This document shows, piece after piece, positions 53,925 through 62,748 of a stretch of 64,000 nucleotides of DNA. Source of the DNA: Myxococcota bacterium. Its GTDB lineage: Bacteria > Myxococcota_A > UBA9160 > UBA4427. A program made the position numbers and the translations under genes. The notes under the pieces were generated by a model. It was not told the DNA's origin and did no database searches. It was given only the letters and a program-made list of their open reading frames with translations. The DNA is taken from positions 1,888,001-1,952,000 of the forward strand of contig OZ252299.1 in NCBI GenBank assembly GCA_965250285.1. The letters run 5' to 3'. The first letter of the stretch is position 1. The number at the start of each line of letters is the position of its first letter.

Positions 53925-54056
53925 ATCGAGCCGGGCAGGCGGCGCCGGGGCGTCTCGAACGCCGCGGCGCCCCGCCCTACTGGGCGCCCGGGCGGCTCCC
54001 AAGCCGCGGCGCCCGGCGCTTTCGAGCGCCCGACCGTTCCGGTCGCCGCGTCCCGA

Positions 54057-54164
54057 GCGTTCAACGCGTCTCGCGGGTTCAACGCGTCTCGCGCGTTCGA
54101 GGCGCCTCGAGCGGTCAGAACGTCTCGCGGGTTCCACGCGTCTCGCGCGTTCGAGGCGCCTCCC
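54057..54164. repeat. Six degenerate 18-bp tandem units with a 54-bp higher-order period
   Basis: gcgttcaacgcgtctcgc / gggttcaacgcgtctcgc / gcgttcgaggcgcctcga / gcggtcagaacgtctcgc / gggttccacgcgtctcgc / gcgttcgaggcgcctccc. Confidence 0.85.
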
Positions 54165-54433
54165 GCGCGCTCACTTCGTCTCCAGCGCGCCCGCCACGAC
54201 CGATGCGCCGGACGCCCGCGCTCTCCTTCAGCTCGCAGGCGCTCCGAGTCGATCCCGACCCCACGCACCCGACGGGCGGGCCCCTCGAGGGTCTCGCGGC
54301 CGCATCGCGCCGCAGGAGTGGAACTCCACTACCCACTCCCCATGGGCGCTGCCCCCTCGTTTCACATCACGCGCCGGCAACGCACAACGTAAGCCGCTGC
54401 GCGCAGAGGGCTCCCCTGCGAATGGGCGGTCCG

Positions 54434-54852: not shown

Positions 54853-55548
54853 ATGCGACGCTTTGCCCCGATTCTGATCGTGTTCGGCCTCGCGAGCCTC
54901 TCGTGCAGCGGCTTCGGCTCCTTCTCGAATGCGCCGACCGACGCCGCTGCGGTGCTCGTCATCCCGCCGACCGAGCTCAAGGAAGCGCCCGAGCTCGCCC
55001 ATCCCATTCGCGCCGATCAGGATCAGCTCGCGGTCATCAAGGCCGACGCGCTCGACGGACGCGTGCGGGGTGAGATTCTCGACGAGCTCCACGCGCGACA
55101 TACCGGACTCTCGGATCGCGAGCTCATGCGACTCGCGTACACCATCGTCCAGGAGTCGGAGCGCCATGGGATCGACCCGACGCTCACGCTCGCGGTGATC
55201 AAGGTCGAGAGCGGCGGCTACCACCTCGCCGTGTCGCCCGTCGGTGCGCTCGGCCTGATGCAGCTGCTGCCGAGCACGGCCGAAGAGCTCGCCCGGAAGC
55301 ACGGGCTGCACTGGCGCGGCGCCAACTCGCTCTTCGATCCGATTCTGAACGTCAAGCTCGGCACCGCGTACCTCAGCCAGCTCGAGCGCAAGTACGGCAG
55401 CATGCACACCGCGCTCGCGGCGTACAACTGGGGGCCCGGTCGCATCGATCGGCGACTGCGGCGCGGCGCGTCGGTGCCGCGGCTCTACCGCGAGCAGGTG
55501 ATGAAGTTCTATGAGGCCGGCGGCAAGCCCTCGGCCTCGCGCTCGTGA
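54853..55548 (+). CDS. Soluble lytic transglycosylase (SLT domain), exported or lipoprotein
   Basis: AVIKVESG (catalytic Glu), GALGLMQL.P.TA, N...GT.YL and ALAAYN.GPG. Confidence 0.92.
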   Translation: MRRFAPILIVFGLASLSCSGFGSFSNAPTDAAAVLVIPPTELKEAPELAHPIRADQDQLAVIKADALDGRVRGEILDELHARHTGLSDRELMRLAYTIVQESERHGIDPTLTLAVIKVESGGYHLAVSPVGALGLMQLLPSTAEELARKHGLHWRGANSLFDPILNVKLGTAYLSQLERKYGSMHTALAAYNWGPGRIDRRLRRGASVPRLYREQVMKFYEAGGKPSASRS

Positions 55549-57074
55549 GCCCCGAGCCAGAGACCTCGACCGGCGTCGGCCGCCTGCGGGACCGCGCCTT
55601 CGTCGCCGCCCACCTCAGCCCCGTGACGCACCAGCTCGGCGACGAAGGCGTCGACGCCGTCCATCGCCGCGCGCGCGCCGTTCTTGTAGCCGTTGACGAT
55701 CACCGCGAAGATGGCGAGCTCGCCGTCCGCCAGCTCGGCGTAGCCCGACAGGCTCGTGACGCGCGCATCCGACAGCAGGCCGGTCTTGGCGCGCACCCGG
55801 CCACGCAGTCCGGCCGCGCGCTTCTCGAGCGTGCCGTCCGCCTGCGCCAGCGGCAGCGAGGCGAGCATCTCGGGACCGAAGGCGAACGAGGCACGTGAGG
55901 CGACGAGGGCCCGGTGCAGCGTCCGGGCCGACACGCGGTTGCGCGTCGACAGCCCCGACCCGTCGACGAGCACCGTGCCGGCACCGAGCACACCCATCTC
56001 GTCGAGCGCCGCTTGCATCGCTGCGAGCCCGGTCGCCCAGCTGCCGGCCTCGCCCGTTGCGGCGCGCCCCATCGACTTCACGAGCGACTCCGCGACCGCG
56101 TTGTTGCTGTACTTCATGAAGAGCTGGACGATCTCGCTGAGCGGGCGCCCCTCGAAGACGAGCAGCTCGTGTCGGGCTTCGTCGGCCTTCCCCCGCCGCA
56201 CGACGCCGGTGACCTCGATTCCTACCGCCTCGAGCTGCATCTTGAGAACGGCACCCGCGTAGATGGCCGGGTCGGAGACGCTGCGCGGAAACACGTCGGG
56301 TTGGGCCCCCGCCGCGAGGCGTCCGCGAACCGAGACGCCCTCGCCCTCGGCCGCGCGTCGACGATCGACGACCAGATTTGGTCGCGTCCGGGGTGCTCCG
56401 GTCGTCGCTCGATTCTCCACCCGAAAGAAGTCGATCGGCGGATCGACGTCGACCCGCACCGGAGCGCCGGGCTTCGGTCCGGCCGTGACCCGCACGAAGT
56501 AGGCGCCGTAGTTGGCGGTGAGCGCGGTGATGGGCGCGTGATACGCGCGCGACGAGACGCGGCCCCAGTCGGGATGGGCGCGCACGGCGTCGAACGCCGA
56601 GTCGTTCACGATGAGGTCGCCCTCGACGCGCCGCAGGCCTTCGGTGCGCAGGGCCGAGGCCACGCGCCACCAGTCCTCGCTGTTCGTGACCGGGTCGCCG
56701 CCGCCGACGACGAGCAGCGCGCTGACGCGCCCCTCGGCGTCGGGCGGCTCGGGCGTGAGCAGCCGCGTCTCGAACTGATGCGTCGGCCCGAAGCGGTCGA
56801 GCGCCGCCATCGCCGTCAGGATCTTCATGTTCGAGGCTGGGATCAGCGAAAGATCCGCATCGTGGGCGTACAGGACGGCCCCGTCACGTGCGCGCCCGAC
56901 CAGGATGCTGGTGCGCGCCCCGGCGAGCCCGGCCCTCTGGCGCGCCCGATCGAGCGCTTGCTCGCGCTTCGCGGCGCGCGTGGACGCGAGATCGCTCGCC
57001 TGTACGGGCGTCGGCGGCCCGCCGCAGGCGAAGAGCAGAGAGAGAAGGAGGGCCGTCAACCCGGTCCGCATCAT
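55509..57074 (-). CDS. dacB: D-alanyl-D-alanine carboxypeptidase/endopeptidase (PBP4, peptidase S13), lipoprotein
   Basis: LFAC lipobox, PASNMK (SxxK), GGGDP, KYSNN (SxN), DGSGLS..N and AKTG. Confidence 0.93.
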   Translation of the reverse strand: MMRTGLTALLLSLLFACGGPPTPVQASDLASTRAAKREQALDRARQRAGLAGARTSILVGRARDGAVLYAHDADLSLIPASNMKILTAMAALDRFGPTHQFETRLLTPEPPDAEGRVSALLVVGGGDPVTNSEDWWRVASALRTEGLRRVEGDLIVNDSAFDAVRAHPDWGRVSSRAYHAPITALTANYGAYFVRVTAGPKPGAPVRVDVDPPIDFFRVENRATTGAPRTRPNLVVDRRRAAEGEGVSVRGRLAAGAQPDVFPRSVSDPAIYAGAVLKMQLEAVGIEVTGVVRRGKADEARHELLVFEGRPLSEIVQLFMKYSNNAVAESLVKSMGRAATGEAGSWATGLAAMQAALDEMGVLGAGTVLVDGSGLSTRNRVSARTLHRALVASRASFAFGPEMLASLPLAQADGTLEKRAAGLRGRVRAKTGLLSDARVTSLSGYAELADGELAIFAVIVNGYKNGARAAMDGVDAFVAELVRHGAEVGGDEGAVPQAADAGRGLWLGAHEREAEGLPPAS

Positions 57075-57251
57075 GTCCACCCCGACCCCGTGTCGGCCGC
57101 GCGACGACCGCGTCGGACGCCTCGATGCGAGCGATCGACCGGTCGCGGCGCGCAGGGGCCACCGCCGCGCCGCCCCGTTCGAATCGGTCGCGGCGCCGGA
57201 AATCTTGGGGGGATCGAGCCAGACGCGGGGGCATCTTCCACCGCCGCGTGC

Positions 57252-57326: not shown

Positions 57327-58685
57327 GTGCTCAGCTGGATCTGGCTCGGGATCGTTCTGGTCTCGGTTCTGTGGGCCGCGCTCTGGAGCGGCGACATGGA
57401 GGCCGTCACCGCTTCGGTGACGGAGGGCGCCCGCTCGGCCGTCACACTCGTGATCGGCCTCGTCGGCATCATGGTGTTCTTCCTCGGGCTGACCCGCGTC
57501 GCCTTCGACGGCGGCCTGCGGGACGCGTTCGCTCGAGCCCTGACCCCGGTGACTCGCCGCCTGTTCCCCGACGTCCCGCCCGATCACCCGGCGATGGGCG
57601 CGATGATCATGAACATGGCGTCCAACATGCTCGGGATGGGCAACGCCGCGACGCCCTTCGGTCTCAAGGCGATGCGTGAGCTGGGCCGGCTGACGCCCCG
57701 GCCGGGCATCGCGAGCAACGCCATCGTGCTCTTCCTCGCAATCAACACGTCGGCGATCACGATCCTCCCGCCCGTGGGCACGATCGCGATCCGCGCCCAG
57801 ACCGGCTCGGCCGACCCGTGGGCCATCTGGGTGCCGACGCTGATCGCCACGACGTGCTCGACCTTGACCGCGGTCACCGCCTACTTCCTGCTGTCGAAGC
57901 TGCCGATGTTCGCGATGGCGGCGCGCCCCGAGATCACGTCGCCCCCCGAGCCCGAGGACATCGACGGCGGCGACGACCCCGCGACGTCGCTGTCCTCGGA
58001 CTCGGGGGGCGACGACCCCGCGACGTCGCTCGAGGCGCCGGAGCGCGCGCCGGTGGGCCCCGGCCGCACCTGGCTGGTGCGCATCACGGCGCTGCTGCTC
58101 GGCGTGGCGATCGTGCTCTTCTTCGTCGATGCCGTGCCCGAGCTCGGCGGCGTCGGCGCCTTCAAGGTCTTCGCGCGCGCCTGGCTGCTGCCGCTGCTCG
58201 TCGTCACGATGCTCCTCGTCGGCGTCGGCGGCGGCGCAGACGTCTACGGCTCGCTGATCTCGGGTGCGAAGGAGGGTCTCGAGGTCTCGGTGCGCATCGT
58301 CCCGTACCTCGTGGCCATGCTGGTCGCCGTTGCGATGCTGCGCGCATCGGGCGCCCTCGGCTCGATCATTGCGACGCTCGACCCGTACACCGCTGCGGTC
58401 GGCGTGCCCGCCGAGGTGCTGCCGATGGCGTTCCTCCGGCCACTCTCCGGCTCGGGCGCGTTTGGTGTGATGAGCGAGATCCTGACGACCCACGGGCCGG
58501 ACACGTTCATCGGGTACCTGACGAGCACGCTCATGGGCTCGACCGAGACGACCTTCTACGTGCTCGCGCTCTACCTGGGTGCCGCCGGCGTCGTCGACGG
58601 TCGACATGCGCTGCTCGCGTGCGTGCTCGGCGACATCGGCGGCTTCATCGGCGCCGTGGCCGCCTGCCACTGGTTCTTCGGGTGA
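57327..58685 (+). CDS. spmAB: Fused SpmA-SpmB (spore maturation / nucleoside-recognition Gate domain) membrane protein
   Basis: SpmA part: LFPDVP..HPA.G, NMLGMGNAATPFGLKAM.EL, FLAINTS. SpmB part: GAKEG, PYLVAML, LRPLSGSGA, GSTETTFYV. GTG start after GGAG. Confidence 0.9.
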   Translation: MLSWIWLGIVLVSVLWAALWSGDMEAVTASVTEGARSAVTLVIGLVGIMVFFLGLTRVAFDGGLRDAFARALTPVTRRLFPDVPPDHPAMGAMIMNMASNMLGMGNAATPFGLKAMRELGRLTPRPGIASNAIVLFLAINTSAITILPPVGTIAIRAQTGSADPWAIWVPTLIATTCSTLTAVTAYFLLSKLPMFAMAARPEITSPPEPEDIDGGDDPATSLSSDSGGDDPATSLEAPERAPVGPGRTWLVRITALLLGVAIVLFFVDAVPELGGVGAFKVFARAWLLPLLVVTMLLVGVGGGADVYGSLISGAKEGLEVSVRIVPYLVAMLVAVAMLRASGALGSIIATLDPYTAAVGVPAEVLPMAFLRPLSGSGAFGVMSEILTTHGPDTFIGYLTSTLMGSTETTFYVLALYLGAAGVVDGRHALLACVLGDIGGFIGAVAACHWFFG

Positions 58686-59791
58686 CGCCCGACACCGACA
58701 CGGCCCCGATCGACGACGCGCGACTGACCGAATGGGTCCACGCCTGCGTCGGCCGCGCCCCGCGCGCGCTCGAGCCGATCGCGCCCGGTCTCGGGCATCG
58801 CACCTTCCATCGTGTCCACTTCGATCCGCCCCTGCCCGTCGGGCCCCGCTCGCTCGTGCTGCGCGTCGATCCGCCCGATGCCCGGATCGCCGTCGGCGGC
58901 GTCGCCCCCGAGCCCGAGCTCGAGCCGATTCGCGCCTGCCTCGAAGCGGCTGGCGTGCCCGTGCCTCGCAGCTTCGGTTCGGACGCGGATCGGGGGCTCG
59001 ACCTGCTCGAGGACGTCGGCGACGAGACCCTCGAGGTCGTCGCCGCGACCGCGCCGCCGGAGATCCGGAAGTCGCTCTACCGTCGAGCCATCGAAGTCGT
59101 CGGGCGACTGCAGACGATCGAAGCACCCGCCGCGAACGACGCCCGCCCGGCGGCGTTCGAGCGGCGCCTCGACCGCGCGCTCATCGCGACGAAGGCGCGC
59201 AAGGTCGTCGATTGGCTCCTGCCCGAAGCGCTCGGGCGCGCCGCTTCGACCGGTGAACGCGAGGTCATCGAAACGAGCTTCGACGCGATCGCCGACCTGG
59301 TCGAGGCCGCGCCGCCGCGGCTGGCGCACCGCGACTACAAGGCGGCCAATCTCCACGTGATGCCGCCGCAGCGGCTCGTGCTGATCGATCTGCAGGGCGC
59401 CTTCATGGCGCCGCCCGAGTACGACCTCGTCTGCCTGCTGCGCGACAATCACGTCGCGCTCGACGACGCCGAGATCGAAGCGCAGCTCGCCTTCGCCCTC
59501 ACCGTATTGCCGGCCGCGCCCGACACCGACACGGCGGGCCTGCGCTTCGACGCCCTGACGATCAGCCGGGTGGGCAAGGATCTCGCGCACTACCTCGACG
59601 CGGCGCGCTCGCGCGGAGACGAACGCTATCTGCGCTTCGTCGCAACGGGGCTCGCGCGGATGCAGACCGCCGCCGAGCGGCTGCGCGCCCGCGACGCACG
59701 CTGGCACGCTCTGGCCGATCTGATCACGCAGCTGACGCTGCCCCCGCGGTGCCGCACGCACGCGAAGGAGGCCCCGACGTGCGCGCCATGA
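58682..59791 (+). CDS. amgK: Aminoglycoside-phosphotransferase-fold sugar kinase, AmgK-like (N-acetylmuramate 1-kinase)
   Basis: R.F.R, G..LLED.GD, HRDY...NL and ID.Q.A...P..YDL..LLRD; directly upstream of a MurU-like gene. Confidence 0.78.
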   Translation: MTPDTDTAPIDDARLTEWVHACVGRAPRALEPIAPGLGHRTFHRVHFDPPLPVGPRSLVLRVDPPDARIAVGGVAPEPELEPIRACLEAAGVPVPRSFGSDADRGLDLLEDVGDETLEVVAATAPPEIRKSLYRRAIEVVGRLQTIEAPAANDARPAAFERRLDRALIATKARKVVDWLLPEALGRAASTGEREVIETSFDAIADLVEAAPPRLAHRDYKAANLHVMPPQRLVLIDLQGAFMAPPEYDLVCLLRDNHVALDDAEIEAQLAFALTVLPAAPDTDTAGLRFDALTISRVGKDLAHYLDAARSRGDERYLRFVATGLARMQTAAERLRARDARWHALADLITQLTLPPRCRTHAKEAPTCAP

Positions 59792-60726
59792 TCCTCGCCG
59801 CCGGGCTCGGCACCCGCCTGCGCCCACTCACCGAGCTGCGACCGAAGCCGGCGCTGCCGGTCGGGGGGCGGCCTGTGATCGCCTACCTGCTCGCGCTGCT
59901 CGCGCACCATGGCGTGCGCGAAGTCGTCGTGAACCGATCCTATCTCGGGGACGTGCTGACGAGCGCCGTCGACGCGTGCACACCCGAAGGCGTACGCGTC
60001 GAGTACAGCGACGAGCACGAGCCCCTCGGCACGGGCGGCGGCATTCGCCGCGCGGCCGAGTTTCTCGCCGAGAGCGACCCGTCGATCGTGCTCGCAGGCG
60101 ACATGCTCTTCGATGCCGACCTGACGGCGTTGGCCGAGGCCCACCGCGCCAGTGGCCGGCGCGCGACGGTGCTGCTCCGCGACGATCCGCGCGCCGACGC
60201 GTTCGGCACGATCGGCCTCGATGCCGCCGGCCGCATGCGCCGCATCGCCAGCCGCTTCGACCTGGGCGGCGAACACTACGCCGGTGTCTTTACAGGTGTC
60301 CGTTTCTTCTCACCGTCCGTGTTCGACGACTGGCCCGACGCCGCCGAGTTCGAGGATCTCACCGACTGGCTGGCGCCCCAGCTGCGCGCCGGCGCCGACG
60401 ACATCGGCGGAATGGTGATCTCGGTCACCGAATCGCAGTGGGAGCCAGTGGGGACGCCCGCCGAATACCTCGCTGCAAACTTGAAGCCTCCGCCCCTTTC
60501 GTTTGCATCGAAGCTGAAGCCCCTCGCGCCGAGCGCAGCGGCGCGGGAGGATCTGGTGATCGGCGCCGAAGCGAAAGTTGTAGAACCCGAGCTGTTGCGC
60601 CGATGTGTCGTATGGGACCACGAAACAGTCCCACCCGGCACTCGAGGCGAAGACGGCGTCTTCGCAGGGGGCCGACTCGTGCCGTGTCGCGACGGCGCGT
60701 CGATCGATGGGAAGGGAGCGACATGA
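59779..60726 (+). CDS. murU: Nucleotidyltransferase, MurU-like (MurNAc-alpha-1-P uridylyltransferase)
   Basis: AMILAAGLGTRLRPLT...PKP, E...LGTGGGI, GD and W..VGTP..Y; paired with the AmgK-like gene. Confidence 0.78.
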   Translation: MRAMILAAGLGTRLRPLTELRPKPALPVGGRPVIAYLLALLAHHGVREVVVNRSYLGDVLTSAVDACTPEGVRVEYSDEHEPLGTGGGIRRAAEFLAESDPSIVLAGDMLFDADLTALAEAHRASGRRATVLLRDDPRADAFGTIGLDAAGRMRRIASRFDLGGEHYAGVFTGVRFFSPSVFDDWPDAAEFEDLTDWLAPQLRAGADDIGGMVISVTESQWEPVGTPAEYLAANLKPPPLSFASKLKPLAPSAAAREDLVIGAEAKVVEPELLRRCVVWDHETVPPGTRGEDGVFAGGRLVPCRDGASIDGKGAT

Positions 60727-61460
60727 ACGAGGTCGTGTTCGTCGGGACGAGCGACGCCTTCGGCGCCGGCGGGCGGCGCCAGTCGGCGGTGCTCGTGCGC
60801 GGTCGCCGCGGCGGCATGCTGCTCGACTGCGGTGCGACCACGAACACCGGGCTCGCCGAGCTCGGCGTCGACCGCGGAGAGATCGACACGATCCTGGTCT
60901 CTCACTTCCACGGCGATCACTTCGGCGGCATCCCGCTCTTCCTGCTCGCAGCGCTGTACACCGACCGGCGAACCGCCCCGCTCGAGATCGCCGGCCCGCC
61001 CGAGGTCGAGGCGCGCGTACGCGCCCTCGCCCACGCGATGGGCCACGACCTCGATCGAAACGACTGGAGCTTCGACATCCGCTTCACCGAGGTGCGACCG
61101 GGCCTGCACTACTCGCTGGGGCCCGCCGAGATCGACGCGTTCGAGATGAACCACCAGCTCGAGGCCCATCCCCAGGGCTATCGCGTATCTCTCGGCGAGC
61201 GCCTGGTCGCGTACTCGGGCGACACCGGATGGTTTCCGCAGCTGCCCGAGCTCTCGGCCGGCGCCGATCTGTTCATCTGCGAGTGCACGCTGCACCACGA
61301 GGTGCTCGACTTCCACATGAACCTGGATCAGATCGTCGAGCACCGCGAAGAGTTCGATTGCGGCGATCTGATCCTCACGCACCTCGGCGCCGAGATGGCC
61401 GAGAAGCGCGGACGCTGCGAGATCGAAACCGCCGACGACGGCGTCGTGAAGAAGCTCTGA
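60723..61460 (+). CDS. MBL-fold metallo-hydrolase (RNase Z/PhnP-like)
   Basis: Start MNEVVFVGTSDAFG, LLDCG, SHFHGDH (HxHxDH), YSGDT, ECT and LTH. ATGA overlap with murU. Confidence 0.88.
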   Translation: MNEVVFVGTSDAFGAGGRRQSAVLVRGRRGGMLLDCGATTNTGLAELGVDRGEIDTILVSHFHGDHFGGIPLFLLAALYTDRRTAPLEIAGPPEVEARVRALAHAMGHDLDRNDWSFDIRFTEVRPGLHYSLGPAEIDAFEMNHQLEAHPQGYRVSLGERLVAYSGDTGWFPQLPELSAGADLFICECTLHHEVLDFHMNLDQIVEHREEFDCGDLILTHLGAEMAEKRGRCEIETADDGVVKKL

Positions 61461-61514: not shown

Positions 61515-61610
61515 CGCGTTAGATCTGCCCGTCGGCGCCCGGCACGCGTTGGATCTGCCCGTCGGCGCCCGGCGCGCGTTAGATCTGCCCGTCGGCGCCC
61601 GGCACGCGTT
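61515..61610. repeat. 30-bp tandem repeat (3.2 copies) made from the 3' end of anmK
   Basis: CGCGTTRGATCTGCCCGTCGGCGCCCGGCR at 61515, 61545 and 61575. Confidence 0.93.
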
Positions 61611-62748
61611 CACCCAGCACGGCGGCACGAGAGGCACCCGTACACGCGGGCAGGTGATTCGGCAGGCCGAGCACCGCGTTGCGCCCCATGAGCGAGAACG
61701 CGATGGCTTCGACGGCCTCGTCGGGTACGCCATGATCGCGACAGCGCTCGATCTGGAGGTCGGGGAGCGCCGCCTGCAGCGCGTCGATCAGGGTCGGATT
61801 GAAGGCCCCCCCGCCACAGGCGAGCAGTCGACCGGGCCGCTCGGCGTCGGCGTCGATCGCCGGCAAGAGTTCGTCGACGGCGAGCGCGACACTGCGAGAC
61901 GTCAGCGCGACCAGGGTCGCGATCAAATCATCGAGCGCGCGCCCTTCGGTCACACATCGCTTCGCGAGCACCTCGGCTTCGGCCCGACCATACCGCTCGC
62001 GGCCCGTCGACTTCGGCGGCGGCTTCGTGAAGTAGGGATCGTCGAGCAGCTCTTCGAGCAGCTCGTCGTCGACCCTGCCCCGGCGACCGCGCATCCCGTC
62101 GCGGTCCATTCGCTCGCGACCTTCGGTCGCGTGCACGAGGACCGCATCGATGAGCGCGTTCGCGGGCCCGATGTCGAAGGCGACCACACGCCCCGGATCA
62201 CCGCCCGCCGGGAGCCACGTGATGTTCGACATCCCGCCGAGATTCAGAACCGCCCGGCCCTCGCCGACATCGGCGAAGGCCGCGTGGTGAAAGAACGGTG
62301 CGAGCGGAGCACCCTCGCCCCCGGCCGCCATGTCGCGCGGTCGAAAGTTCGCGACGACCGGCCGACCCGTTCGCTCGGCCAACCTCGAGGGCGAGCCGAT
62401 CTGCAACGTGCCGCCGTGCTCCGGATGGTGCGCGACCGTCTGGCCGTGGCTCGCGATCGCGCGCACCCCAGCGAGCGGCACACCCGCTTCGGCGGCGACC
62501 GCCTCGGCCGCGTCGGCCAGGGCCTCGGCGACGAAGGCATCGACCGCGACGAGCTCGGCCAGGACGTCTTCGCCAGGAAGGGACCGATCGGCCAGGCGGT
62601 GGATCCGCGCCTGAGCGTCCCTCGGGAAGGGACGCTCGATGTACGCCTGCAGCTCGAACGGGCGCGCCGAGGCGTCATCGGGCCAGTCGACGAGGGCGGC
62701 GTCGACGCCGTCCGCAGAGGTGCCCGACATCAGGCCAATGATCTTCAT
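61579..62748 (-). CDS. anmK: Anhydro-N-acetylmuramic acid kinase
   Basis: IGLMSGTSADGVDAA, SHGQT..H, FR.RDMAAGGEGAPL.P, NLGG.SN, FD.GP.N, PPKSTGRE and CGGG..N. Confidence 0.95.
   Translation of the reverse strand: MKIIGLMSGTSADGVDAALVDWPDDASARPFELQAYIERPFPRDAQARIHRLADRSLPGEDVLAELVAVDAFVAEALADAAEAVAAEAGVPLAGVRAIASHGQTVAHHPEHGGTLQIGSPSRLAERTGRPVVANFRPRDMAAGGEGAPLAPFFHHAAFADVGEGRAVLNLGGMSNITWLPAGGDPGRVVAFDIGPANALIDAVLVHATEGRERMDRDGMRGRRGRVDDELLEELLDDPYFTKPPPKSTGRERYGRAEAEVLAKRCVTEGRALDDLIATLVALTSRSVALAVDELLPAIDADAERPGRLLACGGGAFNPTLIDALQAALPDLQIERCRDHGVPDEAVEAIAFSLMGRNAVLGLPNHLPACTGASRAAVLGERVPGADGQI

Follow-up and report, generated by a model that had tools for sequence, protein, structure and literature searches.

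A fused SpmA–SpmB protein of predicted elevator-transporter fold from a Myxococcota bacterium, a candidate importer of freed wall peptides

Gene organization and conservation of the spmAB cluster

The window analyzed here is a 64,000-nucleotide stretch of contig OZ252299.1 from a Myxococcota bacterium. Its spmAB gene starts with GTG and lies in the gene cluster listed in Table 1. Residues 1–179 of the encoded protein match annotated SpmA of Brevibacillus (43%, E = 4e-49), and residues 286–451 (166 aa) match annotated SpmB (37%, E = 3e-41); the two reference proteins are annotated products of one dacB-spmA-spmB operon. In a Pfam scan, SpmAB gave two Gate (PF07670) stretches (E = 2.5e-19), Gate being the sole Pfam match. 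By sequence, SpmAB is a member of the already known SpmA/SpmB family, with both halves homologous over their full length.

Table 1. Genes of the spmAB cluster and their positions in the window
Product	Position	Strand	Basis of assignment
Fused SpmA-SpmB, 452 aa, predicted CNT/elevator-fold inner-membrane transporter	57327..58685	+	Family match, predicted fold, conserved hairpin-tip/broken-helix motifs
AmgK-like sugar kinase (APH fold)	58682..59791	+	PF01636; NCBIfam AmgK models the only matches, below cut-off
MurU-like nucleotidyltransferase	59788..60726	+	Best NCBIfam match MurU, 140 of 250 bits; PDB MurU matches
Metallo-beta-lactamase (MBL)-fold hydrolase (RNase Z-like)	60723..61460	+	Domain matches; kept in operon, 18/20 order-level loci
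AnmK, anhydro-MurNAc kinase, convergent on operon, start inferred	61579..62745	-	PF03702, E 1e-96; 385 of 387 bits
DacB/PBP4, family S13 D,D-carboxypeptidase/endopeptidase, divergent from spmAB	55509..57080	-	TIGR00666, above cut-off
SLT-domain lytic transglycosylase, convergent on dacB	54853..55548	+	PF01464, E 4e-28

The fused form is frequent, as 7996 of the 7998 scored candidates of similar length match SpmAB; because fused homologues number in the thousands, the fusion itself was dropped as a novelty. Both fused and split spmA/spmB forms are common across the sampled genomes, and the closest named homologues of SpmAB carry a Myxococcota label. A short duplication (window 57963–58033), in which a seven-residue acidic motif occurs twice, falls into the linker that joins the SpmA half to the SpmB half and is modelled with low confidence. 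In some homologues (P0141, P0154 and P0134), Kelch repeats interrupt the sequence close to the N-terminus or a lamin-tail-like domain follows at the C-terminus, and others have inserts of 100–200 aa behind the first helix; as clues to the substrate, the Kelch and lamin-tail fusions are uninformative.

The stop codon of spmAB overlaps the start codon of the amgK-like gene by 4 nt (GTGA, 58682–58685), and ATGA overlaps are present at the next two junctions (59788–59791 and 60723–60726). With three successive 4-nt overlaps, the spmAB, amgK, murU and MBL genes form one coupled run. The divergent dacB gene is 246 bp away from spmAB; its product scores 254 bits against TIGR00666, for which the cut-off is 108 bits. 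The local picture given by the original prediction, one ORF with SpmA and SpmB signatures that heads an amgK-murU operon and diverges from an S13-type dacB, is thus borne out; the anmK and SLT genes, which it did not mention, belong to the cluster as well.

The names of the two salvage genes need some comment. Both are best matches only, under the curated NCBIfam cut-offs (56 of 550 bits for AmgK; Table 1 for MurU). The single PDB match of the AmgK-like kinase is an uncharacterised phosphotransferase, and no paralogue of the kinase was found in this genome; for the MurU-like protein, MurU structures rank second and third among 13 PDB matches. Owing to the gene order and the linkage to anmK, we accept both names as likely despite their low scores. 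An Atlas look-up of the MBL-fold protein gave no match. It is tempting to speculate that this conserved hydrolase could fill a missing step, for example as MurNAc-6-phosphate phosphatase. Between the MBL gene and anmK, the window contains 3.2 tandem copies of a 30-bp unit (61515–61610, 93% matches), and further tandem arrays are located at 53942–54032 and 54047–54167. A search for a sigma-70 promoter found none.

Among 61 relatives, 59 possess spmAB, nearly always as a single match. The 1.5-kb flanks were inspected in 29 of the 58 matching relatives; dacB is present in 29/29 and amgK in 28/29 of these loci, and the sole amgK miss lies at a contig end. In 20 order-level loci picked from other families, murU is kept in 20, amgK in 19, the MBL gene and dacB each in 18, anmK in 16 and SLT in 6. 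In four sister-order loci the cluster is missing, and spmAB is followed by the gene of an SH3 protein. Since it is kept within the order and absent from these four loci, the spmAB-amgK-murU cluster is real yet represents one evolutionary event. Three loci titled Spirochaetaceae/Spirochaetales (L039, L042 and L044) carry the exact cluster with 52–64% identity and group with the window; their titles may be wrong. The gene itself is more widespread. SpmAB homologues occur in 105/251 genomes of the host phylum, in 59/121 genomes of a Bacteroidota-centred sample, and in 69/251 and 67/81 genomes of Pseudomonadota- and Bacillota-centred samples, the last two counts including some remote YjiHG-type matches.

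Predicted fold and conserved residues of SpmAB

The AlphaFold2 model of SpmAB, built from 87 sequences, has a pLDDT of 91.6 and a pTM of 0.89; it contains two hairpins and two broken helices. The top VIA-align match is CNT (Z 14.9, rmsd 4.4, 275 aligned), followed by CNT3 (14.0), ArsB (12.3), AbgT (11.3) and TRAP (10.6). The 13 best matches are all elevator transporters and unrelated chains begin at 6.9; helical bundles may reach about 13 by chance, but the top group here is of one shared architecture. Foldseek gave no match to the model at E <= 0.001, and its top rows come from the same elevator group. Among about 293 homologues, the near-invariant residues cluster at the two hairpin tips (Asn100 to Pro110 and Arg/Lys371 to Gly377) and at the two helix breaks (Asn140 to Pro149 and Gly404 to Tyr411), with Glu/Asp407 present in all 293 rows. 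Taken together, the model and the conserved residues make a transporter fold of CNT/elevator type well supported, in agreement with the kinship to CNT/SLC28 carriers that had been suggested from the Gate domains.

Like SpmAB, the CNT/NupC/SLC28 proteins have two Gate repeats. Different from them, SpmAB shows no PDB sequence match to the solved CNTs and no Nucleos_tra2 domain in Pfam. This genome also encodes a separate canonical CNT with intact motifs. In an HHalign comparison with that protein (probability 0.6%, mapping partly by eye), Asn100 of SpmAB pairs with CNT Asn149, which we take to be a residue with a sodium role; the roles of the other aligned CNT residues are likewise presumed. In the same weak alignment, Gln-Thr-Glu of the first CNT hairpin corresponds to Asn-Ala-Ala in SpmAB. 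The nucleoside-binding residues are apparently replaced in SpmAB, the residue mapping serving as a lead only.

Remote relatives of SpmAB are found in the E. coli YjiH/YjiG pair, which HHalign matches to the SpmB half (YjiG, 97%) and to the SpmA half (64%). YjiH and YjiG form a separate subfamily, and their hairpin-tip motifs differ from those of SpmAB. Like SpmA/SpmB, they are a Gate-family pair, and a cytoplasmic peptidase gene is located downstream; different from the partners of SpmAB, the E. coli partner IadA is an isoaspartyl dipeptidase and no wall enzyme. Among 12 yjiHG loci, the pair is followed by iadA in five, by an M20-type peptidase (BLAST labels at 23–31%) in five and by neither in two; iadA has no match in the present genome. 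The combination of a Gate-pair carrier and a following cytoplasmic peptidase in both subfamilies points to short peptides. In the accessible part of one report, the function of YjiG is called elusive (PMC13311989).

Neighbours of spmAB homologues across phyla

We collected 300 loci with SpmAB homologues. Genes were called with a simple script, and neighbours up to two genes away were labelled by Pfam, NCBIfam or BLAST; the BLAST labels mean similarity to labelled members, and second neighbours were scanned in part. After removal of 6 duplicates, 13 loci with the same cluster as the window and 29 loci of the Bacillota sample, which were kept apart, 252 distant loci remained. In a tree of the SpmA half, 12 of the 13 same-cluster loci group with the window, L156 being outside.

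As stem-peptide enzymes we counted LdcA, S13 dacB, Amidase_3, AmiA-like amidase, Ala-Glu epimerase-like, glutamate racemase-like, DppA and Alr, several of these neighbour labels scoring below their equivalog cut-offs. M14, M20, SBP_5, SH3, Ivy, M23 and CHAP neighbours were left uncounted because they are ambiguous. Stem-peptide enzymes make up 13/427 next genes, 3/356 genes two positions away and 1/700 genes further out, and, counting also those of the Bacillota sample, they seem to be spread over about a dozen separate tree branches. Within two genes, 15/252 distant loci have one and 237/252 have none, many flanks being short. The near-versus-far gradient is significant (p = 3e-5) with labels drawn mostly from near neighbours and therefore biased. 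When 150 of the 657 distal genes were scanned with Pfam as an unbiased control, one stem-peptide enzyme was found (Alr, in an ldcA locus), and the difference is not significant (p = 0.13); this sample also contained an Ivy gene and genes for a lysozyme and a transglycosylase. Because kin are not independent, all of these p-values fall short of a clean test.

The strongest single neighbour signal is ldcA, which is normally present in one copy per genome. It lies within two genes of an SpmAB homologue in seven loci, whose SpmA halves are mostly 0.7–1.5 substitutions per site apart (one pair, 0.17). As immediate neighbour it was seen five times, compared to about 0.1 times expected (estimated with 4000 genes per genome). 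The gene orders include spmA-spmB-ldcA-dppA (L090), spmA-spmB-ldcA-lysA with alr (L208) and M14-spmA-spmB-ldcA (L214). In other loci, an Ala-Glu epimerase-like gene precedes spmAB (L128), or spmAB is followed by S13 dacB, with a divergent gene for a peptide-binding protein (L283). An S11 dacB gene is located upstream of spmA in 11/29 loci of the Bacillota sample, and ldcA downstream in one; in Legionella, an amidase-like gene is divergent from spmAB in 2/2 records. Genome-wide co-occurrence of SpmAB and LdcA is uninformative, LdcA being present in 222/251 genomes.

Linkage to sugar salvage was not found across phyla. The amgK gene occurs in 11 and anmK in 5 of the collected loci, all carrying the same cluster as the window, and both are absent from the 281 loci outside this clade's cluster. 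A murQ gene three genes from an spmAB homologue was seen once (L216), and neither mpl nor nagZ stands beside any homologue in loci L039–L358. Two murU-like neighbours of distant homologues that were checked are GalU or RmlA, the apparent ampD-ampE neighbours of L098 and L101 are really a GyrI-like gene and a CobD/CbiB gene, and the racemase-like neighbour of L266 is EutA-like and was not counted.

Some other arrangements recur. In seven Pseudomonadota loci (L271–L274, L276, L287 and L288), spmAB lies behind gltP and/or ivy, a gene of the lysozyme-inhibitor family. One branch (L075, L081, L088, L120–L126, L191, L193 and L304) shows the order amidase, spmAB, D-2-hydroxyacid dehydrogenase and alanine dehydrogenase, with one or more of the four genes missing from some loci; speculatively, this order would fit lactyl-alanine breakdown. 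Two families without Pfam match are found directly behind spmAB, one of about 450 aa in seven loci (L143, L145–L148, L299 and L300) and one of about 185 aa in nine (L253 and L257–L263).

The link to peptidoglycan turnover that the original prediction proposed stands in part. The genomic linkage to recycling genes is strong within the order and for ldcA, and wall-gene neighbours occur on many separate branches; in bulk the excess is weak, with the low p-value coming from the biased labels and not from the unbiased control. Summed over the three wall readings discussed below, we consider some link of SpmAB to wall turnover fairly probable.

Candidate substrates and proposed role of SpmAB

The genome is assembled as one contig and is 95% complete. 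It carries three GH3 genes, MurQ, AnmK and an Amidase_3. Far from the window, ldcA shares one operon (G000:C1:3365130-3368854) with a serine hydrolase gene and a gene resembling mpl (377 of 389 bits). The serine hydrolase is, judged from its sequence, probably of the beta-lactamase/PBP type, and the operon likely represents a peptide-recycling arm. Neither AmpG nor Amidase_2 (AmpD) was found in this genome. SpmAB does not match the AmpG model TIGR00901, and its predicted fold is not of the MFS type. In E. coli, according to the accessible part of PMC10622912, fragments still linked to sugar depend on AmpD once they are imported, and freed peptides are all that MppA/Opp carries. With neither AmpD nor AmpG found, any peptide would need to be freed from sugar before it enters. 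Sugar and peptide probably enter separately here, either of them being a possible cargo of SpmAB; sugar is favoured by the operon, peptide by the family-wide pattern. Across the host phylum, AmpG scores above cut-off in 21/105 SpmAB carriers and 46/146 non-carriers (p = 0.044, kinship uncorrected), and one genome (G042) keeps the spmAB operon and carries AmpG. These counts rule out SpmAB as an AmpG replacement as a rule, and the notion of a simple substitute has to be given up.

In the best reading of the fold and the neighbours, SpmAB would be an elevator-type importer of freed wall stem peptides or fragments for recycling, to which we give somewhat less than an even chance. The likely cargo would be the stem tetra- or tripeptide, or something shorter, such as Ala-Glu or D-Ala-containing dipeptides. 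In the periplasm, the SLT, DacB and Amidase_3 enzymes, whose genes are present and whose activities are taken from family knowledge, would cut the wall into sugars and free peptides. Elevator movement of SpmAB, as suggested by the predicted fold, would then take the peptide across the inner membrane; its direction is presumed to be inward, and the movement would probably be coupled to a cation through the conserved Asn100. In the cytoplasm, LdcA would trim the tetrapeptide and Mpl would join the tripeptide to UDP-MurNAc, the ldcA and mpl-like genes being those encoded elsewhere in the genome. The UDP-MurNAc needed for this step may come from the co-transcribed AnmK/AmgK/MurU arm, working on salvaged sugar; the place of a peptide importer at the head of a sugar-salvage operon would then make sense. 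Against the import of peptides, the coupled partner in this order is a sugar kinase, and an ABC operon of the Opp/Dpp type, also encoded in this genome, could bring in peptides as well. To our knowledge, a tetrapeptide exceeds the size of the substrates of CNT, AbgT or TRAP carriers.

Three other explanations were weighed. SpmAB may move a non-wall solute (short peptides, amino acids, an ion or something nucleoside-like), its wall neighbours being due to a loose grouping of envelope genes. At most loci the adjoining genes are unrelated, the unbiased control gave a p-value of 0.13, and no wall gene adjoins in 3/6 annotated records; gltP, LOG-family and HAD enzymes, CorA and M20 amidohydrolases recur as neighbours, and the spore phenotype concerns core water content in the accessible text of PMC8745062. 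This explanation is nevertheless unlikely in our estimate, as the rare single-copy ldcA and the S13 dacB recur on separate branches, and as the genome has its own canonical CNT while SpmAB is without the aligned Gln-Thr-Glu motif (weak alignment). We think it improbable that the cargo is free D-alanine or another D-amino acid released by carboxypeptidases. Such a small substrate fits the fold; D-Ala release is established for S11 and S13 carboxypeptidases and for LdcA; and dtd (5 loci), alanine dehydrogenase (12 loci), racemase and D-Cys desulfhydrase-family genes are among the neighbours. The dtd loci and the alanine dehydrogenase loci, however, each form a single branch, amidases release peptides, and LdcA, DppA, the epimerase and LysA are intracellular enzymes that use imported peptides, or products derived from them, and not imported D-Ala.

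The least probable of these readings, in our view, is import of amino sugars (anhMurNAc, MurNAc or the disaccharide) or whole muropeptides for AnmK, AmgK and MurU, which the original prediction had placed first. The coupling to amgK in 28/29 and 19/20 relatives' loci, with anmK in 16/20, speaks for it, as do a fold that in CNT binds a sugar-bearing substrate, the single murQ of L216, the slight rarity of AmpG together with SpmAB (kinship uncorrected) and the failure to find AmpG, the one sugar importer searched for, in this genome. These salvage neighbours are confined to one clade's cluster (11 and 5 loci for amgK and anmK, 0/281 elsewhere), whereas stem-peptide enzymes occur across phyla; in addition, AmpG coexists with the operon in G042 and, without AmpD, the usual route for splitting whole muropeptides is closed. 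Among the substrates listed originally, stem peptides have thus moved to the favoured position, and D-Ala remains as a lesser rival.

Relation to known systems and significance

The proposed job of SpmAB is shared by AmpG, MppA-OppBCDF, YepA-YejBEF and MurP. They belong to the MFS, ABC or PTS types, and we know of none with a CNT/elevator fold. The substrate class proposed for SpmAB, freed wall peptides only, is that of MppA/Opp as given in the accessible part of PMC10622912. As a tentative proposal, which we regard as rather less likely than not, SpmAB could constitute an unrecognised structural class of peptidoglycan-recycling permease, in which an elevator carrier of CNT fold takes up freed stem peptides in many phyla.

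Like SpmAB, the B. subtilis SpmA/SpmB proteins (dacB-spmA-spmB) are of the Gate family and adjoin a D,D-carboxypeptidase gene. Different from them, SpmAB is one chain, is coupled to amgK-murU-like genes and comes from a non-Firmicute host; the neighbouring carboxypeptidase is of family S13 and divergent, whereas that of B. subtilis is of family S11 and upstream. In the accessible parts of the literature, SpmA/SpmB have no known activity or mechanism (PMC3533761; bioRxiv 10.1101/2022.02.25.481979) and are kept in nearly all spore formers (bioRxiv 10.1101/2022.02.25.481979). The accessible text of PMC8745062 describes the dacB operon and the spore-dehydration phenotype of spmAB for Firmicutes only, with dacB being monocistronic in C. 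perfringens. Our literature search, which covered sources outside subscription journals and supplements and in part only, found no paper giving SpmAB a role in recycling.

Being a single chain with a confident model, SpmAB lends itself to transport assays and structural studies. Once its substrate is named, the few recycling permeases known would gain a member of a new fold, and the spore phenotype, a long-open question, could be tested. If peptide import by SpmAB is true, the same carrier in sporulating Firmicutes would remove peptides that are cut off as the cortex matures, and this clearance would give the spore-dehydration phenotype of spmAB a biochemical basis.
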